Shown here: in pieces, positions 6,506 to 34,663 of the stretch
How positions within the stretch are numbered: the stretch's first letter is position 1
Layout: every line of letters begins with the position of its first letter
IMG/VR virus record: IMGVR_UViG_3300045391_005857
DNA from: an uncultured virus (IMG/VR IMGVR_UViG_3300045391_005857)
Taxonomy: Duplodnaviria; Heunggongvirae; Uroviricota; Caudoviricetes
DNA: 57,257 nt
Strand: one strand, 5' to 3'
The notes under the pieces: model-generated
What the model saw: only the letters and a program-made list of their open reading frames with translations
Databases searched by the model: none
What the model was told of the DNA's origin: nothing
Position numbers and translations under genes: made by a program

Positions 6506-6727
6506 ATGGCCAGCAAACATCTCACGACGGGCGACATCGCGAAACTGTGTAACGTGTGCCCGCGAACCGTTGTCAAATGGTGCGACAGCGGGCTGTTGCC
6601 GCATATCAAGCTGCGGCCGAGCCGGCATCGCTGGATCACTCCCCAGGCGTTGGTGGAGTTCCTGCGGCAGCACAATAATCCTATTCCGGAGGAGCTGCAG
6701 TTATGCGTCGGCTCTGGATCGCAGTGA
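6506..6727 (+). CDS. MerR/excisionase-type HTH (HTH_17-like) DNA-binding protein
   Basis: LTTGDIAKLCNVCPRTVVKWCDSGLL...RHRWI. Confidence 0.85.
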   Translation: MASKHLTTGDIAKLCNVCPRTVVKWCDSGLLPHIKLRPSRHRWITPQALVEFLRQHNNPIPEELQLCVGSGSQ

Positions 6728-7746: not shown

Positions 7747-8114
7747 TGCGGTTATCACCAGCTACCCGCAGAGCCCTGAGCAACCTGCTGCATCGTCGCG
7801 AGATCAGCGCCGGCTGCAAGCGGCAGTGCGATTACGGCGGGCTCCAGGGTACGATCGCCAGCCTGGTGCGGCGTGGCCTGATCACATACGGCAAGGCCAA
7901 TGGTTACGAGCTGACGCTGCTAGGCCGCGAGGTGATCACGGCCTACGAGCGGATCGAATGGCGGGACAGTCTGCTGACCAAGTACGAGCGGCGGATTTAC
8001 GAGCTGGAGGAGATGCTCGAAATGACTATGCCGTACCTGCACGGCGACTTCCAGCGTGCGGCGCAGGCGTTGCTGCGGCAGAAGGTTGGGCAACCACCGA
8101 AAGGAAAGCTATGA
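7746..8114 (+). CDS. possible winged-helix plus coiled-coil protein
   Basis: TIASLVRRGLI...YELTLLGRE; TGATG coupling. Confidence 0.55.
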   Translation: MRLSPATRRALSNLLHRREISAGCKRQCDYGGLQGTIASLVRRGLITYGKANGYELTLLGREVITAYERIEWRDSLLTKYERRIYELEEMLEMTMPYLHGDFQRAAQALLRQKVGQPPKGKL

Positions 8115-8123
8115 GCGTGACCA

Positions 8124-8315
8124 ATGACAATCATCGCCAGGAAGAACGGCAAAACGTACGTCATCACCGAAGAAGATCAGCGCGAAATCCTAAAGCTGCT
8201 GGTCCAGTGCGGCGATTTAGAACTTGCGACGGATCAGTACATGCGGCGCAAGTACGGCGAGGCGTTCGTCCCAGAGCCCGAGACTAAGCCCGATGATCAC
8301 CATCCCCTTCGGTAA
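8124..8315 (+). CDS. hypothetical protein (63 aa)
   Basis: In-operon ORF. Confidence 0.55.
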   Translation: MTIIARKNGKTYVITEEDQREILKLLVQCGDLELATDQYMRRKYGEAFVPEPETKPDDHHPLR

Positions 8316-8562
8316 GCCCTTCGGCGATCTCCAATACCACTCGATGGAGGGCGAGTGCATCCGCAGCTTGCTGCAGTTTGCTGACACGTTCACCACGATC
8401 GACTACGAAGAACGCCGCGACGAGTGGATCGCTGAAGTGGTCGGTTGCACCCGTGAGGAGATCGGCGAGCCCCGGCAAGACTGGGCCGGCCTGCGGCGGC
8501 AGATCCTGGGCAGTTGCATGGTGGTAGAGGTCGCTCCCGATGTGTGGGCCAAATACACGTGA
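8293..8562 (+). CDS. MIxIPF-tag protein (MITIPF, 89 aa)
   Basis: ATG ATC ACC ATC CCC TTC. Confidence 0.7.
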   Translation: MITIPFGKPFGDLQYHSMEGECIRSLLQFADTFTTIDYEERRDEWIAEVVGCTREEIGEPRQDWAGLRRQILGSCMVVEVAPDVWAKYT

Positions 8563-8774
8563 TCGAAATCCCCTTTCGTACCTTCCGGCGACTCTCGAAT
8601 AAATGCCGCGAAGGCGACTACGTCTTCTGGCCAACGCCGATCGAGCTACGGTTCGGTATCTTGTCGCGTTTCGTTGAGCCCTGGCGTTACGGGCATACCA
8701 AAGTCCTGATATATACCTGGGTAGCGATTGGCGGCGAAATTCACAATGGTTACCAGTACGTGGATATCCCGTGA
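8559..8774 (+). CDS. MIxIPF-tag protein (MIEIPF, 71 aa)
   Basis: GTG ATC GAA ATC CCC TTT on GTGA overlap; paralog of 12175-12399. Confidence 0.7.
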   Translation: MIEIPFRTFRRLSNKCREGDYVFWPTPIELRFGILSRFVEPWRYGHTKVLIYTWVAIGGEIHNGYQYVDIP

Positions 8775-8846
8775 TCGAACTGCTTAAAAGATGAGCAAGC
8801 CAAGTTTGCTGAGCCAAGTATGTCGTTACCATTACTTTGGTGATCC

Positions 8847-9110
8847 ATGATCGAAATCCCCTTCACCCTCGACGTCGCGCCCTGGCTGTGGTGCCAGCAG
8901 CACGGCATGCATACGACGGCAGATAGCTATGCCCGGTCGCTCGCACTGCCCACGCCCGTCGATATCCATGCCATCTTCAACACCAGGCGGCTAACGGACG
9001 CCGAGGCAGCGGCCGTGCGGGCTCTTGACGGCGACGATGGCGATGCCGGTATCATTACGCTGAGTTATGAGGACCACGACACCGATTTTGCATGGAGGTC
9101 ATTGGAATGA
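8847..9110 (+). CDS. MIxIPF-tag protein (MIEIPF, 87 aa)
   Basis: ATG ATC GAA ATC CCC TTC. Confidence 0.7.
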   Translation: MIEIPFTLDVAPWLWCQQHGMHTTADSYARSLALPTPVDIHAIFNTRRLTDAEAAAVRALDGDDGDAGIITLSYEDHDTDFAWRSLE

Positions 9111-9610
9111 GCTACGACAGCACTAGCGACACGCTCGAACACATCCGCAACGTCAGCGAGCGGCTGTACCACTTCGGCTCCCAACTAGCACTGCGGGCCA
9201 AGCTGCACGACCAGAGCAAGCTCGATACGCCGGAGAAGGAGGCCCTTGACCAGTTTACGCCGCTGCTCAAAGGGTTGACCTACGGCAGCCAGGAGTACAA
9301 GGATGGGCTGGAGAAGAGCGGTCCGGCGATGGACATCTACCTGAAGCATCATTATGCCAACAATCGCCACCACCCGGAGTTCCATGGCGAAAAGGGCGTC
9401 GCCGGCATGACGCTGATCGACCTGGTGGAGATGCTATGCGATTGGCGCGCAGCTACCGAGCGACACGCTACCGGAAACATTCTGCGATCGCTGGAAATCA
9501 ATCGCGAGCGGTTCAAGCTCTCCGACCAGCTTTACGAGATCCTGCTCAATACGGTTAAAGCGCTAGGTTGGGATCAGGCATCGGGCCAAATCTCGCCCGA
9601 CAAGACGTAG
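9107..9610 (+). CDS. HD-like phosphohydrolase (DUF5662-like)
   Basis: H...HDQSK...HHYANNRHHPE...EMLCDW; GGAGG RBS. Confidence 0.75.
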   Translation: MSYDSTSDTLEHIRNVSERLYHFGSQLALRAKLHDQSKLDTPEKEALDQFTPLLKGLTYGSQEYKDGLEKSGPAMDIYLKHHYANNRHHPEFHGEKGVAGMTLIDLVEMLCDWRAATERHATGNILRSLEINRERFKLSDQLYEILLNTVKALGWDQASGQISPDKT

Positions 9611-10140
9611 CCGATCGTGCTCTTGCTGACGTGAAAGCGATCGGCCAGTTTGACAATTGTCGTTTTCTTCGGGGCTGCGTAGGCGGCCCTGATCTTGCGT
9701 ACTTTAGCCGCCGTGAGTTTAGCCCGGCCATTACGTTCGCCGGCGTAGCAGCCGTTGCGGGAGCCGCTTCCGTATGATTTGCGAATGTTCTCAGGCCGCG
9801 TTGTGTAGATCAGATTGCCGGGCTTGTTGTTGCGTTTGTTCTCGTCCTTGTGGTCTACCTCGCAGAATCCAGCAATCGGCCCACGTCCGGGATGCAGCGG
9901 CAACGGCGGCGGCCCGTTAAACGCAACGGCCACCAGGTGATGGACCTTCTTAGAGAACGTCTTGCCATCTTTACGCAGGTTGACGACCAGATAGCCGCCC
10001 CGTTTGGCGACTTGTAGCTTGCGTATCTTCCCTTGTTGTCGTCTGCCAGCAGGGTCGATGCGATCAACAGACCGTACGCGACCTTTGTCAGAGACTTCGT
10101 AGATGCCGGCAAATCCCGGTGCTGGCAACCATTGCTCCAT
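9574..10140 (-). mobile_element. free-standing NUMOD4-HNH homing endonuclease with C-terminal HTH
   Basis: YEVSDKGRVRS (NUMOD4), VHHLVA..F, VDHKDENKRNN..GNL...EN, AKLT..KVRKIR..LADRFHVSKSTI. Confidence 0.9.
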
Positions 10141-10207
10141 AGACTGTTCACCTCGTGGCGGCTATTGTAGCATGTTGAAGTCACGTTGTGACTGGAAAGG
10201 CATTGGG

Positions 10208-10408
10208 ATGGTAAGTGCTGCTGAGCGACAGGCAGCCTGCGATCACCGCAGCAAGCACGAGCTGCCGCGGATCGCCGTCCGCGGTAAATGGTATCGCCGC
10301 TGGTCGTGCGGGCACTGCCACAAGCAGTGGTCCGAGTACGATCGGGACGTCGATCAGCGGAGCTTGACGGATTGCGAAGCTGCGGATGCTTCCCAAGGCA
10401 TCGTCTAG
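10208..10408 (+). CDS. small Zn-binding hypothetical
   Basis: CDH...CGHC; start uncertain. Confidence 0.45.
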   Translation: MVSAAERQAACDHRSKHELPRIAVRGKWYRRWSCGHCHKQWSEYDRDVDQRSLTDCEAADASQGIV

Positions 10409-10430
10409 TTGTCATAATTCTGTCATGACA
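10409..10430 (+). promoter_or_regulatory. 22-bp operator-like box, copy 2, with extended -10
   Basis: Identical to 6291-6312; TGTCATAAT; 11 nt before ATG 10442. Confidence 0.8.
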
Positions 10431-10441
10431 AGGGCATTCGG

Positions 10442-10648
10442 ATGTCCAAGCACACTGCAACCTTCCGCGGCAAACGAGTTGCCGTGACGTTGCACACCGG
10501 CCAGGTCTTAGTCGACCGCTTCATCGACCGTCCCAAGAACCGGCGCTGGATCGAGCTGAAGGTGGCTGGGCGAATCCCGATGAACCAGGTGAAGTCGTTC
10601 TCACCCCTGCAAGGCGAGTTCGACCCGAAGCGTATGCGGAGTCGTTAA
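10442..10648 (+). CDS. hypothetical protein (68 aa)
   Basis: ATG downstream of the box. Confidence 0.65.
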   Translation: MSKHTATFRGKRVAVTLHTGQVLVDRFIDRPKNRRWIELKVAGRIPMNQVKSFSPLQGEFDPKRMRSR

Positions 10649-10924
10649 ATGCTTGAAGCACGTATCCCCCCGCCGGCAGAAAACCCCAATGGCCTGCACC
10701 AACGCTACCGCGTCACGAAAATGGACGGCGAGTACGACCCCAACGCCGTGTACTTCGTACTGCGGCTCGACGGGCAGGGCGACGATCCGACCTGGATTAA
10801 AGCCTGTCGCGTGGCAGCATTGCGACTGGCCCACGAGCTGGACGTGCTCAAGCATATGCCGCACTTGGCAGATGACTTACGTTCGTTGGTGGAGCGGCTG
10901 GTTGCTCAGGATAAGTCGCAATGA
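10649..10924 (+). CDS. hypothetical phage protein (91 aa)
   Basis: GLHQRYRVTK...YFVLRLD...LADDL pattern recalls small phage proteins. Confidence 0.7.
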   Translation: MLEARIPPPAENPNGLHQRYRVTKMDGEYDPNAVYFVLRLDGQGDDPTWIKACRVAALRLAHELDVLKHMPHLADDLRSLVERLVAQDKSQ

Positions 10925-11118
10925 TCGAAGTCCCGTTCCTATCGTCGATGTGGATCACCCGGCCAATACCGCTGTCGCGTGATTCCAAACCTATGACAAT
11001 CGTGTCGTGGTCGACGCTAGGCGGCTCCCGGCGAGTCGGGCTGTTGATGGAGTGGGACAACGGGACAGCGATTATTTTTGATCTGGATCGCGAACGCGAA
11101 GTAGCAGTGCGGGCATAA
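10921..11118 (+). CDS. MIxIPF-tag protein (MIEVPF, 65 aa)
   Basis: ATG ATC GAA GTC CCG TTC on ATGA overlap. Confidence 0.7.
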   Translation: MIEVPFLSSMWITRPIPLSRDSKPMTIVSWSTLGGSRRVGLLMEWDNGTAIIFDLDREREVAVRA

Positions 11119-11171
11119 CATGGCAGTCCTCATCGGACCTACCGTCACATCAAAGCGGAGAAACCAGGCGA

Positions 11172-11450
11172 ATGACCACTGAACTAGAATCCCTGCTCAA
11201 ACAAGCGGGCTCGACCATTGGCGCCCAAGCAATGATCACGACTGAATCCAAACCGACTACGTTCACCACCGGCCAAGTCGCCCGCTGGTCATTCGTTTCT
11301 CCGGCCACCGTCCACAAATGGTGCGTGACGGGCATGCTGCCACATGTGCGGCTCGACAACGGCAATCGGTTGATCGAGAAGGCTGTGTTGTTAGCGTTCT
11401 TTCGCAAGCACGAGCTGCCCATCCCGGCGGAGTTGTGCGATGGAAACTGA
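11172..11450 (+). CDS. HTH_17-like DNA-binding protein, paralog of 6506-6727
   Basis: FTTGQVARWSFVSPATVHKWCVTGMLPH...PIPAEL. Confidence 0.8.
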   Translation: MTTELESLLKQAGSTIGAQAMITTESKPTTFTTGQVARWSFVSPATVHKWCVTGMLPHVRLDNGNRLIEKAVLLAFFRKHELPIPAELCDGN

Positions 11451-11628
11451 AGAACGCTGGTGCGGCCATTGCCAGGCCGACACCCAGCAACGCGGCCACG
11501 ACTCAGGCCACGAACGCGACAGCTCCGGCGATTTCTGGGAGTGTTTGACGTGCCACTGGTATTACACCGGGTACACGGGTAAATGGGAGCCGCCACTTAA
11601 TCTGGAGCAACACGATGGTCCTAGCTGA
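11440..11628 (+). CDS. small Zn-finger protein
   Basis: CGHC...CLTC. Confidence 0.6.
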   Translation: METEERWCGHCQADTQQRGHDSGHERDSSGDFWECLTCHWYYTGYTGKWEPPLNLEQHDGPS

Positions 11629-12178
11629 ACTCGTCCCCTCAGCTCATCCCGACGGCTGGGTCATCGGCCGGCAGAGCGAGCCGCCCTATTGGGAGTTCTG
11701 GACGCCCACTGGCTGGTGCGGCGCCGGCGTTCTGTGGACCGACAAGCCGACGGCCGAGGCGATCGTCGCCCTAATCAACCAGCAGTCGGTCGAGATCGAG
11801 CGGCTGCGGGAGGCCCTGGAGACGATCCAGCGGGTCGACGAGCACCGGATGTGGGTGCAGGACTATATCCGGAGCCCGACGCCCGAGGAGCTGGCCAAGA
11901 AGGCCCTGGCGGGCCATAAGACGCTGGGGCAGCTCCGCTGGGAGTGGCAAGGCAAGACGATCTGCAACTGGAAAGAGCGGGCGGAGGCCCTGGAGACGTC
12001 GATCGACCAGCATATCTTCGATCTCAATCATCGGCAGCAGCACGCCTTGACCGTCGAGGAGTGGGGTCGGCAGCTCGGGCTGGAGAAGGCCCGCATCATC
12101 GCGCGGTTCGATAAGCAGACCGCTGCGGATTGCAAGGCATTCACCGACGCCCAGATCGAGCAGAGGCAGCCGCGGTGA
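11615..12178 (+). CDS. hypothetical coiled-coil protein
   Basis: 187-aa in-operon ORF. Confidence 0.7.
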   Translation: MVLAELVPSAHPDGWVIGRQSEPPYWEFWTPTGWCGAGVLWTDKPTAEAIVALINQQSVEIERLREALETIQRVDEHRMWVQDYIRSPTPEELAKKALAGHKTLGQLRWEWQGKTICNWKERAEALETSIDQHIFDLNHRQQHALTVEEWGRQLGLEKARIIARFDKQTAADCKAFTDAQIEQRQPR

Positions 12179-12399
12179 TCGAAATCCCTTTCCGTACCTA
12201 CCGACGGTTGCGGCCGGAGTGTATGCCGGGTGATACGGTATTTTGGTTTTCTTGCGGGAAGCTGCGGCTGGGCGTGCTGGAGAAATTCTGGCTCAATCCG
12301 GAGACGCAGGCGTCGACGGCCGTGGTGAATGTGCTGGAGTTTTACGGGTACAGATATTGGTGGATGACCTGCACGACTAACGCGCACCGGTTCCCATGA
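12175..12399 (+). CDS. MIxIPF-tag protein (MIEIPF, 74 aa)
   Basis: GTG ATC GAA ATC CCT TTC on GTGA overlap. Confidence 0.7.
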   Translation: MIEIPFRTYRRLRPECMPGDTVFWFSCGKLRLGVLEKFWLNPETQASTAVVNVLEFYGYRYWWMTCTTNAHRFP

Positions 12400-12629
12400 T
12401 CGAAATCCCCTTCGCCCGCCGGCTGCACGACGACTACGGCGGCGACAAGCTGGTCGTGGACATGCCGGACTTGTCCGACGTCCACATGCGGCGGCATAAT
12501 CCGGCCAGATCGTGGCTGGCGTTGGACGCTGCGATCCACCATCCCAATGGCTTCGAGACGGGCACGGTCTTGCTCGACTGCATCCAGCTCACGTTCATGG
12601 CCTACCGCCGGACGGACGAATACGAATGA
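12396..12629 (+). CDS. MIxIPF-tag protein (MIEIPF, 77 aa)
   Basis: ATG ATC GAA ATC CCC TTC on ATGA overlap. Confidence 0.7.
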   Translation: MIEIPFARRLHDDYGGDKLVVDMPDLSDVHMRRHNPARSWLALDAAIHHPNGFETGTVLLDCIQLTFMAYRRTDEYE

Positions 12630-12787
12630 TCGCCATCCCCTTCAGCGCAGACTATCAGCCCCCGGAGCCCGTGCCTGACTGGGTTGCGGACATGCTGTAC
12701 GAGATCGATCGCGATTTTATTATTAGCTATCACATCGCGCAGGGCTGTCAGCCGCCTGATATCCCGCGAACGCGGCCACGACCATGA
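12626..12787 (+). CDS. MIxIPF-tag protein (MIAIPF, 53 aa)
   Basis: ATG ATC GCC ATC CCC TTC on ATGA overlap. Confidence 0.65.
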   Translation: MIAIPFSADYQPPEPVPDWVADMLYEIDRDFIISYHIAQGCQPPDIPRTRPRP

Positions 12788-12978
12788 TCGCCATCTCCTT
12801 CGCAACCAAATACTTCGGCCCCATCCTGCCAGGCGATCCCGGGCTGGAGGCGCTCAAGCCAGACTGGGATCGTTATGGCGTAGGGCGGCCCCAAGCTCCG
12901 CCGCCTGTATCTGTCAGCGGCCGCTGGCTGTCGCTCAAGGAGTTCCAGGAGCTGCTGGATGATCGTCGTCCCTTTTAA
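12784..12978 (+). CDS. MIxIPF-tag protein (MIAISF, 64 aa)
   Basis: ATG ATC GCC ATC TCC TTC on ATGA overlap. Confidence 0.65.
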   Translation: MIAISFATKYFGPILPGDPGLEALKPDWDRYGVGRPQAPPPVSVSGRWLSLKEFQELLDDRRPF

Positions 12979-13150
12979 CTCCGCCCACTATTTCACACGC
13001 ACGTCGTTCGAGATATTGCGGTGGGGTCGAGACGAACTGGACGACCAGACGCGGCGGGAGTTGCTGCAAAACCCGGGCGTCAGGACAATCGGGTTGGGAG
13101 CCTGGCGGGAAGACATGTTCGCAGCTATGGACTGGGACCCGGACGAATGA
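12959..13150 (+). CDS. MIxIPF-tag protein (MIVVPF, 63 aa)
   Basis: ATG ATC GTC GTC CCT TTT. Confidence 0.65.
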   Translation: MIVVPFNSAHYFTRTSFEILRWGRDELDDQTRRELLQNPGVRTIGLGAWREDMFAAMDWDPDE

Positions 13151-13521
13151 TCATCGTACCCTTCGCGAATCGCTGGCCGGCCTACGTCGTCCTCCACTGC
13201 GGCAGCGACGTCATGCAACCGCTCGTCGCTCATGCGCAGCCGATCCACATTGTCGGGGCGCGAGAGATAACATGCCGCGACGTGAAGTTCCCCAGCAACG
13301 TACTGTCAGTGATTACATCCAGCACGACGTTGTTGGACTCGCGCAAGGAAGCAATGAGTGAGTGCTACTTCCAGGCCGTGCAGATTCTGCCGGGCGACGA
13401 TCTGGCGATCGTCATCGATCACGACTGCGAAGTCGGCGGAATGTGGGTGCATCGGCGGCTGCAGGGAAATAGTCACTGGCGGCGCTCGCAAGAGGTGCAT
13501 CTGTTGAAGCCGCACTTCTGA
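13147..13521 (+). CDS. MIxIPF-tag protein (MIIVPF, 124 aa)
   Basis: ATG ATC ATC GTA CCC TTC on ATGA overlap. Confidence 0.65.
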   Translation: MIIVPFANRWPAYVVLHCGSDVMQPLVAHAQPIHIVGAREITCRDVKFPSNVLSVITSSTTLLDSRKEAMSECYFQAVQILPGDDLAIVIDHDCEVGGMWVHRRLQGNSHWRRSQEVHLLKPHF

Positions 13522-13558
13522 TTGCTATTCAGGCGTGCCACGCTCCGCCGTATATTCT

Positions 13559-13571
13559 GGTACTTAGAAAC
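13559..13571 (+). repeat. dispersed 13-mer, copy 2
   Basis: Exact GGTACTTAGAAAC, intergenic. Confidence 0.9.
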
Positions 13572-13598
13572 GGATTTTCCACCACGGAGGGCGGACGG

Positions 13599-14252
13599 AT
13601 GGAGCCGATCAAATGTTTCTTCGTCGAGCCAACGGGCGAAGTCGAACTCTACCTGCGACGCTATGTCGGCAGCGACAAAGCCAAGTGCCCCGGGCCAATG
13701 GGCTATCACGACGCCATGAAGCTGATTGGCGACGCGCCGGCGATCTATACCGAGCTGCACGGCCGCCGCGTGCTCGATCGCCGGCCGGAGGAGTTCAAGG
13801 ACGACGATCCGCGGTGGCCGACGGAGTGCATCTGCGGCTACAAGTTCCAGCCGGACGACAATCGCCAGATTTTCCAGGAGCAGGTCTATGTGCGACGAGA
13901 CACGGGAGAAGAATTCGGTCTACGTCATCTACCTGCTGGCGCTATGTACTTTGCTGACTGGATGCTACACGACGGCAGTAATCGCGATCGTGGCCCGGAT
14001 AACCATTCGCTGGTGGTGATGGTCCCGAGCCCCAAGACGGGCAAAGCCCATTGTTGGCATGTGGATTCACGCTGCAACAACTGTGACCTGCCCGACGACG
14101 ATGAGCACAAGTGCTGGGTGCGGCGCGGCGATCCGACGACGGGCATTATCACGGTCGATAAGAACGGCAAGACTTGCGGGGCGGGTGGCGGCAGTATACA
14201 AACAGACGATTGGCACGGGATGCTGACCGATGGAATCTTGAGGCAGTGTTAA
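13599..14252 (+). CDS. Cys/His-rich, probably metal-binding hypothetical
   Basis: CICG, HCWHVDSRCNNC...HKCW...WHG; GGAGG RBS. Confidence 0.75.
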   Translation: MEPIKCFFVEPTGEVELYLRRYVGSDKAKCPGPMGYHDAMKLIGDAPAIYTELHGRRVLDRRPEEFKDDDPRWPTECICGYKFQPDDNRQIFQEQVYVRRDTGEEFGLRHLPAGAMYFADWMLHDGSNRDRGPDNHSLVVMVPSPKTGKAHCWHVDSRCNNCDLPDDDEHKCWVRRGDPTTGIITVDKNGKTCGAGGGSIQTDDWHGMLTDGILRQC

Positions 14253-14253
14253 G

Positions 14254-14475
14254 ATGGCAACGCTGGGCGACGAGGTGATGCAGCAGATTTTTGCTGAGGA
14301 AGATGCCAAAGTGCTGGTCGCAGTTAGCAAAGCGGCTGAGGAGGCCGGCCAGCGAGAACGAGAGCAAGCCCGCCAGGCCGGCTTTCAACAGGGCTCAATT
14401 ATCGGCATGCTATTTGGGCTGATCTGCGGGATCATCGTCGGCGTGGTGCTGGCGAACTTAATCAAGCTACAATGA
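14254..14475 (+). CDS. small protein with C-terminal TM helix
   Basis: Hydrophobic C-terminus. Confidence 0.6.
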   Translation: MATLGDEVMQQIFAEEDAKVLVAVSKAAEEAGQREREQARQAGFQQGSIIGMLFGLICGIIVGVVLANLIKLQ

Positions 14476-14669
14476 CTCCAATGGCTACGGTGCGAGAGAT
14501 CGCGGAAGAAATCAACGGCGGCCCGCTCCCGGAGCCGGAGCCGCAATTTATGTTATCGTTCTTCGCCTATCAGACGATCGGCTACTACGGCGGCGACCCG
14601 GTCCCCGGCAGAATACCCAATTCCGAGCAGCAGGATGGCCCACCTTCCGACTCTCAAGCTCCTGATTGA
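14472..14669 (+). CDS. hypothetical protein
   Basis: ATGA-coupled. Confidence 0.5.
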   Translation: MTPMATVREIAEEINGGPLPEPEPQFMLSFFAYQTIGYYGGDPVPGRIPNSEQQDGPPSDSQAPD

Positions 14670-14844
14670 CGGCAAGAACGTCCTGCCGGAGGATATGGCA
14701 AACCGCTGCACGTTCCGCTTCGTCAGCAACGGCGACAACACGGCGAGCCCCGTGCTATACGTTGACGGCAAGCGGGAGACCAGGCTGTGGTTCCTGCACG
14801 TGCAGCACGAGGAGCCCAAGGACACCAATGGTCGGTCCGGCTAA
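14635..14844 (+). CDS. hypothetical protein
   Basis: In-operon ORF. Confidence 0.55.
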   Translation: MAHLPTLKLLIDGKNVLPEDMANRCTFRFVSNGDNTASPVLYVDGKRETRLWFLHVQHEEPKDTNGRSG

Positions 14845-15067
14845 GATATTACGACGATCGTTCCTGGCTGCTTTTCTAGCCGTGCTTTTTGTACGGCCGG
14901 CGAAACGGCCCTACCACATGCCGTCAGTCGCGGTATTCAACGCTTTGCCGACCGCCAAGTATATTCGCGGTCCGCGTTATCGCGTTCAGCTCGGTCGCAT
15001 CGTGGGTAGCAAATCTACGAACATGCGGTGGGTCCCCATTCCCGGTAAGTTTTTGGAGAAGGATTAA
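14828..15067 (+). CDS. small protein with twin-arginine-like leader
   Basis: LRRSFLAAFLAVLF. Confidence 0.5.
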   Translation: MVGPAKILRRSFLAAFLAVLFVRPAKRPYHMPSVAVFNALPTAKYIRGPRYRVQLGRIVGSKSTNMRWVPIPGKFLEKD

Positions 15068-15069
15068 AC

Positions 15070-15324
15070 ATGGCCCGCGCTGTCCCCGGCAAGCCGAAGT
15101 ACGATCGTAAGTTCGTCAAAGCCCTCGATCACCTGAAGGACTTTCTCAACGGCGTCAGCGACCACAATCACTCGCTGATCGACAATCTCAGCGCCGGCGA
15201 GATCGAGATGGCCCTGTCCCTGTTTGAACAACTATCGCCCAAGCTCCGCCACCACGCCCGTATCCGGGCCGAGCAGGGCATGAACCGTCGGTCGCCACGG
15301 CGCCGCGGTATGATCAAGAATTAG
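15070..15324 (+). CDS. hypothetical basic protein
   Basis: AAGGA RBS. Confidence 0.65.
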   Translation: MARAVPGKPKYDRKFVKALDHLKDFLNGVSDHNHSLIDNLSAGEIEMALSLFEQLSPKLRHHARIRAEQGMNRRSPRRRGMIKN

Positions 15325-15329
15325 ACTCG

Positions 15330-15365
15330 TTTAGTCGATCGACTAAATTTAGTCGGAGGGCTAAA
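15330..15365. repeat. nested inverted repeats of TTTAGTCG
   Basis: Perfect palindromes 15330-15347 and 15340-15355, imperfect third 15348-15365. Confidence 0.85.
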
Positions 15366-15369
15366 TCTC

Positions 15370-15756
15370 ATGTCGCGGATGAGCGTAATTGGCTGGCTTC
15401 TGATCGGTAGCGCCGCCCTGGCCTACGAGTTGCCCTTCCCCACACCGTTGCCGCCGGACGCCATCAACCACGGCTGGTCGCTGCACCAGATCGAACGGGA
15501 CAACAAATGGTCCGGCGCTGTGTACAGCTTGCTGGACGACAAGCGTGACCTGGAGAACCAGGTCTACTGGCTGGGCGTGATGTTGATCGTCAGTATGGTG
15601 CTTAACGTCGGGATCGTAATTGCGTTTGCGGAGAGCAATCGCCGGCGACAAGGAAAGTCTTATGCTAAGGCCCCGCTTCAGTCTGCGGTCGTTAGTCATC
15701 ACGCTCCCGCTGTTGATGACCATGTGCATGTGGTTATGGCGGTGCGGACAGATTGA
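15370..15756 (+). CDS. membrane or secreted hypothetical
   Basis: GGAGG RBS, signal-like N-terminus, one TM. Confidence 0.55.
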   Translation: MSRMSVIGWLLIGSAALAYELPFPTPLPPDAINHGWSLHQIERDNKWSGAVYSLLDDKRDLENQVYWLGVMLIVSMVLNVGIVIAFAESNRRRQGKSYAKAPLQSAVVSHHAPAVDDHVHVVMAVRTD

Positions 15757-16108
15757 CGTCCAGCCGCTCTACCACACCGACAACTTCGGCAACAAATCCG
15801 CCGGCTACGAAGGCCGGCTGTTTTCGTACCAGCTCTACGTCACCGATCGTAGGATCGAGCTGTCCCGCGTGATGGTCTGGATCGACACAGCGCCGCGCAC
15901 CGCCGACGATAGGCGGCCGTTCCAACTCGACAAGCATCCGTGGGACGGACGGCATTACGGCTCGTTCACGTACCGGCAGATGGTGTGCTTGCAGATCGGC
16001 GACCCGTTTGATGCCATCACAACACAGGCTCCCGGGTGGCAGGCTGTGGACGCGGTTATACGGCCCTGGCTGGGTGATAGCATCTGTGACTCGCTGATTT
16101 CGCGTTGA
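15662..16108 (+). CDS. membrane-anchored hypothetical with planctomycete-style RFSLRSL leader
   Basis: MLRPRFSLRSLVITLPLL. Confidence 0.6.
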   Translation: MLRPRFSLRSLVITLPLLMTMCMWLWRCGQIDVQPLYHTDNFGNKSAGYEGRLFSYQLYVTDRRIELSRVMVWIDTAPRTADDRRPFQLDKHPWDGRHYGSFTYRQMVCLQIGDPFDAITTQAPGWQAVDAVIRPWLGDSICDSLISR

Positions 16109-16134
16109 CCTGTTTTCCGGCGGCTGGCCATAAT
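16105..16134 (+). promoter_or_regulatory. sigma70-like promoter
   Basis: TTGACC-18-CATAAT. Confidence 0.5.
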
Positions 16135-16175
16135 CCGGGCTGTGAACGATTCACTTGCCACGGAGGGCCGCAGCC

Positions 16176-17279
16176 ATGCGGAATGGAGTCCTGCTCGCTA
16201 TCGCGATACTTGCCTCTTCCGCCGTCGCTCTGGACGGCATCCCCACGCTCGCCAGTCGCCCCGACGCGAAGAATACGCTCTACCTGGATTTCGACGGGCA
16301 CAAGATGGACAAGTGGGGGCAGTACCAGGACGCCAATGCCACGGCGTTCACGATGGACGACGACCCCAAGACGCTCAGCACACAGGAGCGATCGGCGATC
16401 ATTGACATCTGGGCCCGCGTCTCCGAGGACTACGCCCCTTTTCAGCTCAACGTCACGACGATCGAGCCGCCGGCGGAGCAAGACGACGTCGCCCGCATCG
16501 TGATCGGCGGCAACGGCAAGAGCTGGTATGGCTATCGCGACCGCAACAACTATTGGCATGCCTACCAGAGCGGCGGCGTGGCCTATGAGAAAGCGTTCAA
16601 GCTCAAGAAGTGGCCGTCGGTCGGCTGGGTATTCATGGATCACCTGGCGGTCCACGCCAAGCGTGGCGAGGGTTGGTGGGCCAAGGCGATGGCGGAAGCC
16701 GCCAGTCATGAGGCGGGACACTTATTCGGGCTCGCCCACACGCCGGCCAATGGCCGCACGTACGACAGCGGGACCAAAGCCGCGGCGCCCATCATGGGCG
16801 CCTCGTACTATTCGCTGCGGACCCGCTGGAACCGCGCGATCAACGACGAGAATAAAGACCAGGACGCGATCGCGGTCCTGGCGGACACGCTGGGCCTGGT
16901 GGATGACGACCACGGCGATACGATCGAGCGGGCCACGGCGATCGTGGGCACCGGCGGAATCGAGGTCAACGGGATCATCGGCACGCACAAGGACGTGGAC
17001 ACGTTCAAGTTCGCTAGCATGGCCGGCGGCCAGCTCTCCATCAAGGTGGAAGGCCTACACCGCGGCGGAAATCTGGACCCGCTGGTCGAGCTGCGTGACA
17101 GCAAGGGCGATGTGCTGCAGAAAGCCGCGGCCGGCGAGACCCTTTCGCGGACGCTTGACGGCGGTTTATATTACCTCTCGGTCCGCGGTACCGCCGGCTA
17201 TGGCGATTTAGGCTGGTACACGCTCACCGGCGAGGTGCCGTGTGTGACATTGGATGTGTACACAGTCCTGCGGCCGTAA
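16176..17279 (+). CDS. secreted metzincin metalloprotease with PPC-like C-terminal domain
   Basis: Signal peptide; HEAGHLFGLAH; Met-turn APIMG; DDDHGDT...DVDTFKF...G.YYLSV. Confidence 0.85.
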   Translation: MRNGVLLAIAILASSAVALDGIPTLASRPDAKNTLYLDFDGHKMDKWGQYQDANATAFTMDDDPKTLSTQERSAIIDIWARVSEDYAPFQLNVTTIEPPAEQDDVARIVIGGNGKSWYGYRDRNNYWHAYQSGGVAYEKAFKLKKWPSVGWVFMDHLAVHAKRGEGWWAKAMAEAASHEAGHLFGLAHTPANGRTYDSGTKAAAPIMGASYYSLRTRWNRAINDENKDQDAIAVLADTLGLVDDDHGDTIERATAIVGTGGIEVNGIIGTHKDVDTFKFASMAGGQLSIKVEGLHRGGNLDPLVELRDSKGDVLQKAAAGETLSRTLDGGLYYLSVRGTAGYGDLGWYTLTGEVPCVTLDVYTVLRP

Positions 17280-17291
17280 GGAGTCTTTGCT

Positions 17292-17939
17292 ATGGCATGC
17301 CGTTCAGGAGAATGCGGACACAGCTATCAACCACAGCCGAAGTGGCACCTGGCCTTGGCGGCGATCGCACTGATCGTGGCGACCATCACGCTGGCATGGG
17401 TCTGCGGGAGAGCCCAGGGAGAAGAGATCAAATATCCGCACGTGGTTCTGAAAGCCCCGGAACCCAAGGTGCAGATCATGATCTATCGATTGCCGAACTC
17501 CAAATCCAGCGGCTCCGCGGTGGCGATCGGGCGGGCGATGGAGCAACAGGGTTGGAGCGTGATCTATCTCGACGCCTACGGCGGAATGGCTGGCGTGTCC
17601 AAGATCAAAGTCGCCCCCACGACCGTGATCGAGACGGTCGGCGCTGACATGCAAGTGCATGAGGAAGCCCGCATTGAGGGCGCCGCGCCGGCTGAAACGA
17701 TTTACGCGGCTGCCAGAGCAGCGCGTAATAAGATCAAGCCGCCGGTCGCCGCACCAATCGGTTCTGCACAACCCAAGCCGGATGGCTCTTACCCGTACAA
17801 GATCGACGAGCAGGGTCGTATGTTCGGCCAGATCGATGGCGAGTGGAAAGACACCGGCCGTCGGTTTATCAAGGGGCCGACGAAAGAGTGGAACGAGATC
17901 ATTAAGCTCCCTGCACCAGCTATCGCCACTACACCCTAG
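17292..17939 (+). CDS. secreted or membrane hypothetical
   Basis: AAGGAG RBS, TM helix. Confidence 0.7.
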   Translation: MACRSGECGHSYQPQPKWHLALAAIALIVATITLAWVCGRAQGEEIKYPHVVLKAPEPKVQIMIYRLPNSKSSGSAVAIGRAMEQQGWSVIYLDAYGGMAGVSKIKVAPTTVIETVGADMQVHEEARIEGAAPAETIYAAARAARNKIKPPVAAPIGSAQPKPDGSYPYKIDEQGRMFGQIDGEWKDTGRRFIKGPTKEWNEIIKLPAPAIATTP

Positions 17940-18388
17940 TGCCTATCGTTATCCCGTTCTCGCGGTACTACGCCACGCGGACGTTGATTCGCTTCCGGCT
18001 CTTGGATGACGAACTCAACATCGTGACGGGTGGTTTCGTGGTGACCAATCTCACCACCGGCGAGCACGGGCCACGCGGCTACGTAACAATCGAGATCAAG
18101 GAGGCCGTGTTGCCCCTTGGTCGCTGGAAGGCGCTGGTAGAGGTTTACGGCAACGTCGCCAGCAACACGCGCTTCTCGGCCGTATTCCCGGTCAATGGGG
18201 CGTTGCCCCGCGTCCAAGACCCGATCATTATCCAGGTCGGCACGGCTGTTGCGGCGACGGACGTCGTCACAGATGACAGCCTGATCCTCGTTGAGTCCTT
18301 TGCCATCATTGGCCGGACCAACGAACACAACCATCGGATTTTCTACGAGTTGTGGCGACAACAACAATGCTCTCGCAAAGGACGGTGA
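17939..18388 (+). CDS. hypothetical with divergent MIxIPF tag (MPIVIPF)
   Basis: GTG CCT ATC GTT ATC CCG TTC on TAGTG overlap. Confidence 0.6.
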   Translation: MPIVIPFSRYYATRTLIRFRLLDDELNIVTGGFVVTNLTTGEHGPRGYVTIEIKEAVLPLGRWKALVEVYGNVASNTRFSAVFPVNGALPRVQDPIIIQVGTAVAATDVVTDDSLILVESFAIIGRTNEHNHRIFYELWRQQQCSRKGR

Positions 18389-18389
18389 C

Positions 18390-19397
18390 ATGCGTTGGTT
18401 CTTGCTGCTGTGTCTATTCGTAACTCCAGCTTACGCTCAGCGGGGCGCCATTCGGCAGGACGAGCTGAAGCACGTGCAGGAGCAATTCCAGCAGCTCTGG
18501 GGCGAGCCATTGTTGATGAAGCTCGCCGATCTGCCGGCGGAGGGCCACGTTCCCGACTTCCGCATCCCGTATAGCGGCCACGATTATCCCGATCGGGCGG
18601 GCGGCACTTACCTGGCCCTGTCCAAGTACGACCGAGCCTTCAATCGCGGCGCCCTGGCGACCAATTACGAGATCAACGACGTCAAGCTCCATCGCTACGG
18701 CAAGACCAAGCGGCCGCCGTTGCTCTTCCCCAAGGCGGCGGAGCGCCGCGTGCCGGGCTGGTACGGGCACTGCAACGGCTGGACAGCGGCCGCGATCAGG
18801 CATGCCGAGCCGCAGCACAGCGTGACCCGCAATGGCGTTACGTTCACGCCGGCGGACATTAAGGGGCTCTTGGCGGAGCTGTATATGTACTCGGACTCGA
18901 CGTTCCTCGGTGGCGTCGATCCGGCGATCAATCCGGCGATGTTGCACCTGGCTCTGGCCAACTGGCTGGGCCGTGGCGCGCATCCGATCGCCATGGAGGC
19001 GGCTCTCGGCGAGATGGTCGTGAACTTCCCCATCCACCGCTATTCCTCCACGATCTCACCCGGCAATCCGACCGTGGTCGCCACGACCGTCACCTACACG
19101 CTCAACATTCCGCGCGAAATCGACAAAGGCCCCGCGAACTTTAATCGCAAGATGGTGTTCTCTTATGCTCTCGACCTCGATCAGCAGGGCCAGATTCGCG
19201 GCGGCTACTACCTCAATGGCAGCCAGGCGATCGACATGCTTTGGGTGCCGCTCAAGCCGACCCAGGGCGGTCAGGCCGGCAATCAGTCGGGCAACCCTTA
19301 CCTCAACGTGAAAGATGTGCTGGCTCTGTGGCGGGACTCGGTGCCCGAGGAGACACGGAAGGCCTGGCACAACATCGATCCGGACGAAGCACCATGA
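18390..19397 (+). CDS. secreted transglutaminase-elicitor-like cysteine enzyme
   Basis: Signal peptide; WYGHCNGWTAAAI..EP...NGVTF...DIKGLLAELY; INPA..H; V.NFPI. Confidence 0.75.
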   Translation: MRWFLLLCLFVTPAYAQRGAIRQDELKHVQEQFQQLWGEPLLMKLADLPAEGHVPDFRIPYSGHDYPDRAGGTYLALSKYDRAFNRGALATNYEINDVKLHRYGKTKRPPLLFPKAAERRVPGWYGHCNGWTAAAIRHAEPQHSVTRNGVTFTPADIKGLLAELYMYSDSTFLGGVDPAINPAMLHLALANWLGRGAHPIAMEAALGEMVVNFPIHRYSSTISPGNPTVVATTVTYTLNIPREIDKGPANFNRKMVFSYALDLDQQGQIRGGYYLNGSQAIDMLWVPLKPTQGGQAGNQSGNPYLNVKDVLALWRDSVPEETRKAWHNIDPDEAP

Positions 19398-29595: not shown

Positions 29596-29832
29596 GTGCC
29601 GAAGCATCTGAAACGCCTCGTGGATATTTTGGCTCAAATCTCGGGGGCCGATCCGCATAGCATCCGGCCCCAGACGCGGCTCCTCCGCGAGCTGGGGCTG
29701 GATACGCTCGACATTGAAGACATCGAGCATGAAATCGCCATCGAGTTCGGCGTGGACCTCGATCTCATCCGGGCCGGCGATATCACCGTCCAGCAGATTC
29801 TGGACATGCTCAGTGAGAGCTTAGAATGGTAG
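29596..29832 (+). CDS. acyl-carrier-protein-like protein (Thr at the Ser site)
   Basis: I.PQTRLLRELGLDTLD...I..EFGVDL...ITVQQI; GGGAGG RBS. Confidence 0.75.
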   Translation: MPKHLKRLVDILAQISGADPHSIRPQTRLLRELGLDTLDIEDIEHEIAIEFGVDLDLIRAGDITVQQILDMLSESLEW

Positions 29833-30529
29833 CCAGCGAGAATAGTCCCTTGTCCACGTAGGGCGTCAGCGTGCGGCGGACGAAGCCCAGCTCGGCCTTG
29901 GTGGCTCGCCGGCGTTGTTTCCGCACCTCCATGATCTTGGCCGTGCCGGAAGTGTTCTCGCCGTGGCAAAGACGAATGTAGAGCGTGGGCGGGCTCTCGC
30001 ACGGCACGAACTCTCCTTGGTTCTTGAACGCCATGGCGAAGTCGCTATCCTCGCCCGTGTCGCGCGATGGGTAACGCTCCGACCCATGCTGCCAGAGGAT
30101 CGTCCCGCAGCATGCTCCGCAGCGGAAACATTTGCAGCTCCGCACAAAGCAGTTGCCGGTGTTGACGTCGATGTTGATGTACGACGTCAGGGCCGTGGCC
30201 CGCTTGCCTTGCATCTGGGCGTTGGTGAGCTGGTAGCGGATGCGATTGGGGTCGTGCCAGTCGTCATCGTCCCAGGCGATTGCCCAGTCGCCCGGGTTGA
30301 GGAACTGCATGATCTCGTTGCGGAGCTGCCCTAGCGTGGGCGGCCGCTGGACGATGTGCTCGCTCACCAGCGGGTGGTGGAAGTTGATCCGCTCCCCGTG
30401 GTTGAAGATGATCATCCGCTTTTCGTAATGCGTCTGCTCGGCAAAGCATTGCAACGACATCTGCGCCAGCTTCCTCCGCTGCGGCGTGCCGGCGGTAACC
30501 ATGAGGGCGGTGACGAGCGGTTGACTCAC
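29810..30529 (-). CDS. GT-A (GT2-like) glycosyltransferase
   Basis: PLVTALM, TLGQLRN, WDDDDWH.PNRI..Q, GEDSDF. Confidence 0.85.
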   Translation of the reverse strand: MSQPLVTALMVTAGTPQRRKLAQMSLQCFAEQTHYEKRMIIFNHGERINFHHPLVSEHIVQRPPTLGQLRNEIMQFLNPGDWAIAWDDDDWHDPNRIRYQLTNAQMQGKRATALTSYINIDVNTGNCFVRSCKCFRCGACCGTILWQHGSERYPSRDTGEDSDFAMAFKNQGEFVPCESPPTLYIRLCHGENTSGTAKIMEVRKQRRRATKAELGFVRRTLTPYVDKGLFSLATILSSH

Positions 30530-31248
30530 GGTAATTTCTCTCCCCGATAGCGATGCTTCTGGCGACGGCGATTGTGGAACATTGATTTGATACGGGCGGC
30601 CCTGGTCTCGGCTTCCGGGATTGCGATGCCGTCGAGACGCTTGGTGGCCCGGCCGAACCAGTTCTTGCCGTCCTCACCGAGGTGCAGGACTTCGAAGTTG
30701 GGGCGAATCTTGCGTTCGATCGGCCAACGGTCTTGGAAGATGCTGTCACAGCCGCCGGCATGAATCCATTTCACGTCGTACCACGGCCGTTCGACCAGCA
30801 CCGGATCGGCGGCATGAAAGAGTTGGAAGTAGCCAGGGAACTCGCCCTCATTGGTGCGATAGCATGTCGTCCAGTCGAAGTCGGGCGTCCATTGCGACGG
30901 GTCGGTGAGCATCCGGCGATGCGGCGTATACAGATTGCCGATCTGGATGTCGTTTAGCGGCATGACGTCGGGGAAGAGCGTGTCGGCGTCGTGGATGATG
31001 ATCCAGCCCGTGCGGCCGAGGAAGGTCAGGCCCTCCTCCATCGCGGCGCCTTTGTTGAACTTCGCCCCCTGGCGGTAGAAAGCATCGGTGACAAAGCAGC
31101 GGGCGTTGGGTACAGTTTGGACCAGCTCCTTCGTACGTTGATCGTGCGGAGCGGTGACGACGACGATCTCGCTTAGATGCCGGGCATTCAGGGGCAGGGT
31201 TATAGCGAGGAGGTCGTCATATTCCACACAGACAGTGATTCCTTTCAT
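30526..31248 (-). CDS. GT-A glycosyltransferase-like protein
   Basis: ITVCVEYDD.L, FNKG, HDADT, GYFQLF. Confidence 0.75.
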   Translation of the reverse strand: MKGITVCVEYDDLLAITLPLNARHLSEIVVVTAPHDQRTKELVQTVPNARCFVTDAFYRQGAKFNKGAAMEEGLTFLGRTGWIIIHDADTLFPDVMPLNDIQIGNLYTPHRRMLTDPSQWTPDFDWTTCYRTNEGEFPGYFQLFHAADPVLVERPWYDVKWIHAGGCDSIFQDRWPIERKIRPNFEVLHLGEDGKNWFGRATKRLDGIAIPEAETRAARIKSMFHNRRRQKHRYRGEKLP

Positions 31249-31999
31249 GCCCAAGCTCTCCATCCTGGTGATTACGTTGCAGTCACGAGCCGAGAAGCTC
31301 GCCAATCTGCTGGCTTGTTTGCGACCCCAGCTTACGGACGACGTCGAACTTTTGCAATGTTGCGACAACGGCGAGCGACAGTCCGGGGCCAAGCGGAACG
31401 AGCTGCTGTTCAAGGCCACCGGCGACTACGTCGCCTTCATCGACGATGACGACCTGGTGGCGGACGATTACGTGCAGCGGATGCTGGCAGAGATCGAGCA
31501 TAAGCCAGACGTGATTACCTTCCGCCTGCGGATGAGCCGGGACGGCAAGTTCGTCGAGCAAAAGTTCGGGCTGCACGAGCAGGACGGCCCCCAGTGGGGT
31601 ACGGATATCCGGATGACCGCTAACCACATCTGCGCCTGGCGTCGCGAGCTGGCCACGATGATGCGGTTCCCGGACTGGCTGGGCTACGGCGACGATCAGT
31701 TCTGGTACAAGCCGCTGATTGCCGCCGGCGTCGCGAAGACTGAGCGACACATCGATCACATCATGTACTACTACACGTTCTCCCGGGCGGCGACGGCGAA
31801 TCAAACCAAGGAGCGTGTGCGTGTTGCCGACAAGTGGGTTGGCAGCGGTATCCAGGCGTACTGGATGGCTGATCGGATCGTTATGGACCGACACTCCGCG
31901 CAGTTCGGTCGCGTTCGGCGGGTCTATGACGCCGGCGGACGCGAATTTGATATCGATGCAGCGGAGTTGAAACCGATCGCACTGTGCTATCTCAAGTAG
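31247..31999 (+). CDS. GT2-family glycosyltransferase
   Basis: KLSILV, GAKRN, ATGDYVAFIDDDD. Confidence 0.88.
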   Translation: MPKLSILVITLQSRAEKLANLLACLRPQLTDDVELLQCCDNGERQSGAKRNELLFKATGDYVAFIDDDDLVADDYVQRMLAEIEHKPDVITFRLRMSRDGKFVEQKFGLHEQDGPQWGTDIRMTANHICAWRRELATMMRFPDWLGYGDDQFWYKPLIAAGVAKTERHIDHIMYYYTFSRAATANQTKERVRVADKWVGSGIQAYWMADRIVMDRHSAQFGRVRRVYDAGGREFDIDAAELKPIALCYLK

Positions 32000-34109: not shown

Positions 34110-34663
34110 TTTGGTTTGATGAAGAACCAGCTCTCGATCTCTTCCGCCGATGTCTTGTACGGCGTGAGCTGATGTTGTTCAGCGAAAGCGATAACGGCCG
34201 GGCGGACTTCGTCGGCCCACTCCCATTCGTTGAGATCATGGCCCGACATTACGCCGCCAGGTCGAACCCTGGTCCACCAGCTTTGCATATCTTCTTCGAC
34301 GAAGCGGCGGATGTGATTACCGTCGATATGTACGAAATCCAGCGCGGCGGGCTCGATCTGGGCGGCTGCCTCGGTCGAGAGCATTCGCCAGAGTCGCACA
34401 CGGTTGGCGAAAGGCGCTAGCGTATCGACGGCTGCCTGATAGTCTGCATCGCGATCGCCGTAAGCTACCATGTCGTGATAGCTGGGCAGCTTTCGCCAGG
34501 GGTCCACGCAGATCAGCTCGCCGGGCCAGGCATTAAGAAACAGCGCGGCGTACTCGCCGCGATGGGTGCCAACCTCGACCGCTGTGCCGGTGAGGTCCCG
34601 TGTCCGCAGGAAACTACCAAAATCGACACGGGTCGGTAGTTCGGGGTGAGCGACAATGTCCAT
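34106..34663 (-). CDS. class I SAM methyltransferase (Methyltransf_24-like)
   Basis: VEVGTHRG, VDPW, DFVHIDGNH, PGGVMSGHD. Confidence 0.9.
   Translation of the reverse strand: MDIVAHPELPTRVDFGSFLRTRDLTGTAVEVGTHRGEYAALFLNAWPGELICVDPWRKLPSYHDMVAYGDRDADYQAAVDTLAPFANRVRLWRMLSTEAAAQIEPAALDFVHIDGNHIRRFVEEDMQSWWTRVRPGGVMSGHDLNEWEWADEVRPAVIAFAEQHQLTPYKTSAEEIESWFFIKPK

Follow-up and report, generated by a model that had tools for sequence, protein, structure and literature searches.

A hexapeptide shared by the starts of eleven small, mostly dissimilar genes of an uncultured soil phage, possibly a portable docking label

A short N-terminal peptide, M-I-x-(I/V)-(P/S)-F, recurs at the starts of eleven small genes in IMG/VR record IMGVR_UViG_3300045391_005857, a stretch of 57,257 bases (~60% G+C) that is part of a large uncultured soil phage; we call the peptide and its 18 bases the tag, and the whole stretch analysed the window. 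With the exception of one pair, the proteins carried behind the tag appear unrelated at any level that sequence comparison detects, and the tag itself varies in the manner of a selected peptide. We tentatively propose that the tag is a portable N-terminal docking or address label, whose hydrophobic strand face may bring diverse small accessory proteins to one partner. Identical copies of proteins of the window also occur on contigs of 27, 53 and 119 kb from soil metagenomes of the Joint Genome Institute (JGI) and Logan collections, and most genes of the window match no family.

The DNA consensus of the tag is RTGATCRNNRTCCCYTTY. Allowing at most two mismatches (<=2), this consensus has 10 matches in the 57,257 bases, all on the plus strand, seven with no mismatch and three with one; in 100 shuffles the mean number of matches was 0.53 and the maximum 2, so that 0/100 reached 10. 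A six-frame search of the whole window for the peptide x-I-x-[IV]-[PS]-F gave 11 places, each of them at a gene start (11/11). Ten of these are canonical tags, found from 8293 to 13521 with eight ATG and two GTG start codons, and the eleventh is a match at 17942, one codon after the GTG of the gene at 17939, whose protein has one extra residue and begins M-P-I-V-I-P-F. All eleven tagged open reading frames (ORFs) show G+C of about 0.6, 0.43 and 0.73 at the three codon positions (GC1/GC2/GC3), like the confident genes of the window, and because of this agreement they are very probably real genes in these frames. They lie in a long stretch of small co-oriented genes, closely packed and for the most part orphans, and they encode proteins of 53 to 149 residues with isoelectric points (pI) of 4.4 to 9.0, 6/11 being acidic. 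The tagged genes, with one fragment of the tag lying among them, are the following (overlaps in nucleotides, nt).

8293 to 8562, plus strand: tagged gene, 89 residues, MITIPF..., acidic (pI 4.5); 23-nt overlap with the upstream gene 8124-8315.
8559 to 8774, plus strand: tagged gene, 71 residues, GTG start, (M)IEIPF...; paralogue of the gene at 12175; GTGA overlap.
8771 to 8794, plus strand: possible relic, GTGATCGAA, equal to the first 9 nt of the tag, in a frame of 8 codons including the stop; GTGA overlap with the stop of the gene at 8559.
8847 to 9110, plus strand: tagged gene, 87 residues, MIEIPF..., acidic (pI 4.4).
10921 to 11118, plus strand: tagged gene, 65 residues, MIEVPF..., one mismatch; ATGA overlap with 10649-10924.
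12175 to 12399, plus strand: tagged gene, 74 residues, GTG start, (M)IEIPF..., the first of six in a row; GTGA overlap with 11615-12178.
12396 to 12629, plus strand: tagged gene, 77 residues, MIEIPF...; ATGA overlap.
12626 to 12787, plus strand: tagged gene, 53 residues, MIAIPF...; ATGA overlap.
12784 to 12978, plus strand: tagged gene, 64 residues, MIAISF... (Ser for Pro), one mismatch; ATGA overlap.
12959 to 13150, plus strand: tagged gene, 63 residues, MIVVPF...; 20-nt overlap; preceded, alone among the tagged genes, by a 5-mer Shine-Dalgarno-like word.
13147 to 13521, plus strand: tagged gene, 124 residues, MIIVPF..., one mismatch, the last of the six; ATGA overlap.
17939 to 18388, plus strand: divergent tagged gene, 149 residues, GTG start, (M)PIVIPF...; 1-nt overlap with the TAG of 17355-17939.

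An initial annotation of this DNA, made by a model from the sequence, had placed the tag at the same ten starts and, in divergent form, at 17939; it had also described six consecutive genes mostly joined by RTGA, a truncated mini-ORF at 8771 and bodies that diverge right after the tag. Both the DNA consensus and the six-frame peptide search return these starts, the six consecutive genes span 12175 to 13521, and the mini-ORF is present. The window contains 7 copies of the word RTGATCGAA where 0.98 would be expected: 5 in tags, 1 in the relic at 8771 and 1 unrelated copy at 22604 on the minus strand; the relic thus exists, but carries little weight as evidence.

The divergence of the bodies was confirmed by several comparisons. 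In BLASTP searches of the proteins without their tags, 1/55 pairs is similar, that of the genes at 8559 and 12175 (50% over 32 residues, E 3e-9); no other pair has an E value below 0.12, and 54/55 pairs are without similarity. Translated comparison in all frames and short-word comparison of the DNA of the bodies added nothing to this pair, the next best translated match (E 0.005) lying on opposite strands, and a MAFFT alignment of the tagged proteins conserves only M1, I2, P5 and F6. Profile searches were equally unproductive: no Pfam match to the tagged proteins was below E 0.099, PHROGs gave four matches at E 0.027-0.18, NCBIfam gave none, and a PDB profile search with the first 24 residues gave 0 matches. 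Among 5.8 billion proteins, those of the genes at 12175 and 17939 matched identical copies only. AlphaFold2 models reached a mean predicted local distance difference test (pLDDT) of 50.7 for the gene at 12175 (two-row alignment) and 36.1 for that at 13147, too low for fold comparison. In the ESM Atlas the protein of the gene at 13147 scored 0.77, below the chance bar, against glycosyltransferase-like fragments that have no Pfam backing at E up to 1, and that of the gene at 17939 met unnamed viral clusters only. At the sequence level the tagged ORFs are therefore not full-length paralogues of one ordinary family.

These comparisons bear on a rather unlikely alternative, namely that the tagged genes are a fast-diverging family of tandem paralogues, in which the first strand would be kept as the core of a shared small fold, together with a constrained start context, and would have no address function. 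Such a family would account for the clear paralogy of the genes at 8559 and 12175, for the lineage-specific occurrence of the array (absent from 79 metagenome and 80 viral loci that carry the gene of a 217-residue protein encoded just downstream), for the synonymous sites of the tags, which are not randomised, as for fairly recent duplicates, and for the aromatic residues that, judged by eye, recur 3-5 positions past the tag, many members also having a Trp within the first 30 residues. It accounts poorly for bodies that are dissimilar in 54/55 pairs, with nothing in other frames, next to tags that keep their synonymous positions: drift of paralogues is disfavoured because uniform point mutation would not erase the bodies while sparing the wobble sites of the tag. 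Similarity also shifts abruptly at nucleotide +19, from identity to none, and the lengths differ nearly three-fold and the charge widely. A single shared fold that needs the tag strand is unlikely in view of this spread, from 53 to 149 residues and from pI 4.4 to 9.0.

The way in which the tag varies bears on whether it is kept as a peptide or as nucleotides. The information per base stays high over +1 to +18 and drops to background on both sides (-12 to -1, and +19 onwards). Among the tags, codons 2 and 4-6 never differ in their second position. Third-position changes at codons 4, 5 and 6 were seen in 1, 3 and 2 of the ten tags, respectively, and the first-position changes at codons 4-6 comprise three between A and G (Ile/Val) and one of C to T (Pro to Ser). 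No base of codon 3 is constrained, and this codon encodes E, A, T, V or I. This is the pattern of peptide selection, in which the alternate residues I2, I/V4 and F6 are constrained together with Pro5, and it suits a short amphipathic strand. The selection at the peptide level that the initial annotation had suggested is thus in the main upheld by the invariant second positions, the variable third positions and replacements confined to Ile/Val and one Pro/Ser.

In such a strand, Ile2, Ile/Val4 and Phe6 would lie on one face, with position 3 free and Pro5 fixed, and this hydrophobic face may dock each bearer on a common partner, which could be a part of the assembling virion, another hub of the phage or a host protein. 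The RTGA with which the tag begins closes one gene and opens the following one at most junctions, giving a chain of coupled translation, and the near-identical 18-mers at gene starts could serve as in-register microhomology for gain, loss or exchange of whole cassettes. The docking, the common partner and the role in recombination are all what we infer from the pattern. The alternating hydrophobic residues and the proline may resemble bacterial sliding-clamp-binding peptides, protease degrons and the first strand of GT-A glycosyltransferases. If the tag is such a label, the phage could bring newly acquired small proteins to a single site and would need no fresh interaction to evolve for each of them, and the 11 orphan genes would form one functional class, probably of host-directed accessory proteins, on which homology alone is uninformative. 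The initial annotation had spoken of an effector system, a function that one might infer at most.

Two other explanations start from the same peptide and from its place in the gene. The tagged proteins might bind each other, their N-terminal strands zipping into one hetero-oligomer with variable outer parts. The coupling of six consecutive genes would favour equimolar synthesis and the alternating hydrophobic residues would suit strand-strand pairing, whereas the scattering of the tagged genes at 8293-9110, 10921 and 17939 among untagged ones, and the existence of a module of three tagged genes elsewhere, are unexpected for a fixed complex; we regard this explanation as very unlikely. A complex prediction for the proteins of the genes at 12396 and 12626 scored 0.01 and is no evidence either way. 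Even less credible is the idea that the tagged genes serve as orphan cassettes for replacing the variable end of some larger gene beyond the window (as in polymorphic toxins and tail fibres, with their stored alternative ends), the tag being the recombination joint. The motif does mark the very point where constant sequence gives way to variable, with the cassettes in a row, but all ten have an ATG or GTG of their own, most are coupled to the preceding gene, and the motif occurs in no other gene of the 57-kb window in any frame. A looser search for a copy of the tag on other proteins of the window, for instance at the end of a scaffold protein, gave just three matches, all internal and of no note.

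The junctions between the tagged genes and their upstream neighbours are tight. At 7/10 canonical tags, the 4-nt RTGA is shared with the upstream stop (TGA), and these junctions make up most of the 4-nt overlaps of the window. The remaining ones comprise overlaps of 20 and 23 nt and one junction after a 72-nt gap that holds the fragment at 8771. Promoter-like and terminator-like sites between 6000 and 20000 are not enriched, with 6 against 5.2 and 10 against 9.8 expected from shuffled sequence, respectively. None of the datasets listed as containing window positions 8000-14300 is of RNA.

Part of the array was recovered in a second context, in ~10-kb Logan contigs of the runs X4 and X6, which come from one other soil sample of one study. 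The segment is letter-identical to the window, with 0 differences and 0 gaps, while several kb on either side of it in these contigs are unlike window positions 8000-14300.

8140 to 9589, no strand assigned: module of 1450 bp, holding most of the gene 8124-8315, the tagged genes at 8293 and 8559, the relic, the tagged gene at 8847 and nearly all of a DUF5662 gene.

Since the module is identical amid differing flanks, the tagged genes move as cassettes between genomic contexts. In this single case neither edge, 8140 or 9589, is at a tag, and the identity of the module is therefore not proof that the tag is the joint. Gain and loss of cassettes through the 18-nt microhomology is no more than plausible, by analogy with the PeSLs (promoter-early stem-loops) of T4-type phages (PMC2839356). 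The right edge of the module lies next to the only minus-strand gene in the run of small genes, a homing endonuclease gene with NUMOD4 and HNH_3 domains (9574-10140, minus strand) whose 3' end runs into that of the DUF5662 gene. This endonuclease is probably a recent insertion specific to the phage of the window, because the edge at 9589 falls just inside the overlap of the two genes.

The tag was then sought in other genomes. An exact-tag scan of viral contigs gave 9 single, unrelated loci, and 4/9 of these belong to one family of 328-330 residues that starts M-I-E-I-P-F and is found on unrelated low-GC viral contigs as single genes, outside any array (L030 at 3375, minus strand; L033 at 6001, plus strand; L034 at 6018, minus strand; L029 at 6001, plus strand). 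In prokaryotic genome contigs the exact tag was present at at least 120 single loci, two of them with a second loose match, and no array was seen among the matches listed. Around 25 DUF5662 loci there were 3 tag matches, none of them in a gene. A full-text literature search for the hexapeptide MIEIPF returned no paper from the collection searched.

Relatives were also sought through the gene just downstream of the array (13599-14252, plus strand), which has a good Shine-Dalgarno site and encodes a Cys- and Trp-rich protein of 217 residues. Metagenomes and phages contain at least 422 relatives of this protein (45% to that of Burkholderia phage FLC9); it has no Pfam, PHROGs or NCBIfam family, and 61 columns are invariant among 8 sequences. 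It represents a widespread, undescribed family of phage proteins. Of 80 metagenome loci around the 217-residue gene, only one (L035), identical to window positions 3599-24249, has the array, and the other 79 together contain 3 loose tag matches. Eighty viral loci around the same gene (1.27 Mb) contain one loose tag match and no array, and a de novo search for recurrent N-terminal words in the loci of this gene found low-complexity words only. None of the genes at 4-24 kb of the window is otherwise shared with 105 of the loci examined, except for one match of 6506-6727. A neighbouring protein of 187 residues has 11 relatives, the best of them on a 961-bp contig, and none in viral contigs.

Among the tagged genes lie untagged ones. 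The gene 11172-11450 (plus strand) encodes a BldC/excisionase-like helix-turn-helix protein (NCBIfam E 2e-4, below the cut-off), and 11440-11628 (plus strand) a 62-residue protein with two Cys pairs, which suggests, as far as such likeness goes, that regulators are embedded in the tagged array. Upstream of the divergent tagged gene at 17939 and its neighbour 17355-17939 lies 16176-17279, and downstream lies 18390-19397 (both on the plus strand). These two flanking genes have signal-peptide-like starts; one has weak matches to metallopeptidase M12 and PPC, and the other matches the transglutaminase-elicitor family (E 3e-22).

Elsewhere in the window the recognisable genes include an SNF2 helicase, methyltransferases, the HNH/NUMOD4 homing endonuclease and one virion protein, and scans for Rfam families and tRNAs found nothing in the window. 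In a 1061-residue protein (40391-43576, plus strand), a 2H phosphoesterase domain of the 'Swiss Army Knife' type (2H-SAK) is combined with an SNF2-type helicase. From 53224 to the end of the window, on the plus strand, a single ORF of more than 1343 residues encodes a fused RNA polymerase beta/beta', in which the beginning of beta' (Rpb1 domain 2) is joined to Rpb2 domains 2, 3 and 6. Among cultured phages it is best matched, at 31-33% identity, by single ORFs of Salmonella phage Arash and Vibrio phages D181, D148 and D69. On the minus strand, the block 29810-34663 has a radical SAM-like gene, a Methyltransf_24 gene and unassigned genes. Inside it, on the plus strand, lies a glycosyltransferase gene (31235-31999) that starts M-I-P-F, a likeness to a shortened tag that is probably due to chance. 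We considered the tagged genes as an array of precursors of ribosomally synthesised and post-translationally modified peptides (RiPPs) and rejected it: the leader would have only 6 residues and the 'cores' 47-143, and the radical SAM-like gene is ~19 kb off on the other strand.

Several observations, drawn from the nucleotides and starts of the tagged genes, from the search for relatives and from the comparison with phage T4, weigh against the docking label. Pairs of tags with the same residue use the same codon in a fraction of 0.76 (Monte Carlo p 0.0013, 20,000 simulations from the codon usage of the window). ATC is used in 17/17 Ile codons of the tags against 71% in the window, GAA in 5/5 Glu codons against 30%, and CCC in 6/9 Pro codons against 27%; the excess of GAA is softened by its use in 12/21 cases within the first six codons of the other genes of the window. 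Because the choice among synonymous codons is narrower than the codon usage of the window would lead one to expect, the conservation is partly at the nucleotide level or due to recent common ancestry, and there is thus, below the peptide pattern, a second and weaker layer of constraint on DNA or RNA or of recent shared ancestry. The tagged starts are also less folded than those of the other genes, which are predictions of a crude caller (-10.4 vs -14.1 kcal/mol over 60 nt, n=11 vs 75, p 0.013), and this fits a translational role as well. Even a 4-mer Shine-Dalgarno core is missing from 8/11 tagged genes, although this deficit was rejected as a specialty of theirs (core in 3/11 vs 31/74 other predicted starts, p 0.51); low or coupled expression, if that is what these starts mean, would be unlike the abundant internal proteins of T4. 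Finally, no relative with a comparable array was found in the collections searched (~2.7 Mb of other phage and genome loci), and the array is lineage-specific as far as visible.

Some of these observations speak for an element acting mainly at the nucleotide level, in which the 18-mer would be a start context for termination and reinitiation along genes that lack Shine-Dalgarno sites (RTGA followed by an open start of lower G+C), or a microhomology for cassette shuffling by unequal or inter-phage recombination, and the peptide a by-product. The initial annotation had raised recombination or translational coupling as an alternative, and in its favour stand the RTGA coupling at 7/10 tags and the nucleotide-level signal in the codons, with GAA and CCC used against the habit of the window. 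The less folded tagged starts, the 1450-bp module in another context, the truncated tag at 8771 and the published precedent of short conserved cassette borders driving shuffling, the PeSLs (PMC2839356), point the same way. What does not agree with it is that the variation follows the reading frame, third against second positions in codons 4-6 and a free codon 3, which is unexpected for a site on RNA or DNA. Furthermore, nothing is conserved upstream of the start, the missing Shine-Dalgarno word is not specific to tagged genes, and neither edge of the exchanged module is at a tag. On balance we consider such an element unlikely as the main explanation. If the tag were mainly translational or recombinational, it would be a compact case of one 18-mer acting as stop, start and cassette joint.

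The docking label has its nearest known counterpart in phage T4, whose internal proteins IPI, IPII, IPIII and Alt, with their variable counterparts in T-even phages, are described as sharing an N-terminal capsid targeting sequence (CTS) (PMC3012670, PMC9026906). The CTS propeptide is given as 10-19 residues long, with about 10 of them required (PMC9026906). As in those accounts of T4, a short N-terminal peptide is here common to small, otherwise unrelated, non-essential-looking proteins that are encoded near each other, and the bodies vary while the label is kept. The differences are among the points against the label mentioned above. Only 6 residues are conserved against 10-19, which makes the tag shorter than the published targeting peptides with which it was compared; no residue is conserved at positions 7-12, and hence there is no conserved cleavage position; and the tagged bodies are mostly acidic or neutral, not basic. 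Unlike the bearers of the CTS, the tagged genes are translationally coupled and have no strong ribosome-binding sites. Among 45 and 69 proteins of the window, which is a partial genome with most proteins outside any family, there was no recognisable head protease or scaffold of the T4 kind. The phage itself is not related to T4; the cultured phages that it matches best are Arash and the Vibrio phages for the RNA polymerase and FLC9 for the 217-residue gene. Of the analogy with T4 capsid targeting drawn in the initial annotation, what stands is the shared peptide on 11 mostly unrelated ORFs, and what falls is the length of 10-19 residues and the conserved processing position.

We keep the docking label apart from its more specific forms. 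That the partner is the assembling capsid is unlikely at best. It is likewise doubtful that the hexapeptide is a minimal address label loading unrelated accessory proteins on one phage structure, for example the head for co-injection with the DNA, with its 18 bases serving also as coupling signal and cassette joint. Were the label real, foreign proteins could be loaded into or onto a phage with a very short tag, a use to which the T4 CTS has already been put, and if it loaded accessory proteins on one phage structure it would be the shortest such viral tag and would imply an independent origin of CTS-like labelling in several virus lineages.

Two further known systems share features with the tag. 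The PeSLs of the hyperplastic regions of T4-type phages are described as short conserved borders of orphan genes that can mediate modular shuffling (PMC2839356). Like them, the tag is a short repeat at the borders of small orphan genes, and a tagged module is found in a second context. Unlike the PeSLs, which are intergenic units of a sigma-70-like promoter and a stem-loop terminator, the tag is coding and varies like codons, and promoter and terminator sites around it are at chance level; in the single case of exchange, the breakpoints at 8140 and 9589 also differ from those of a PeSL-type cassette in not lying at the repeated tag. The stop-start coupling through ATGA or GTGA resembles 7/10 tags, but explains bases 1-4 only and not codons 4-6. 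The docking label, which we prefer tentatively, is of a kind already known: one N-terminal label on diverse phage proteins is familiar from T4, and the window presents, in a single genome, a shorter peptide of this sort on eleven small genes.

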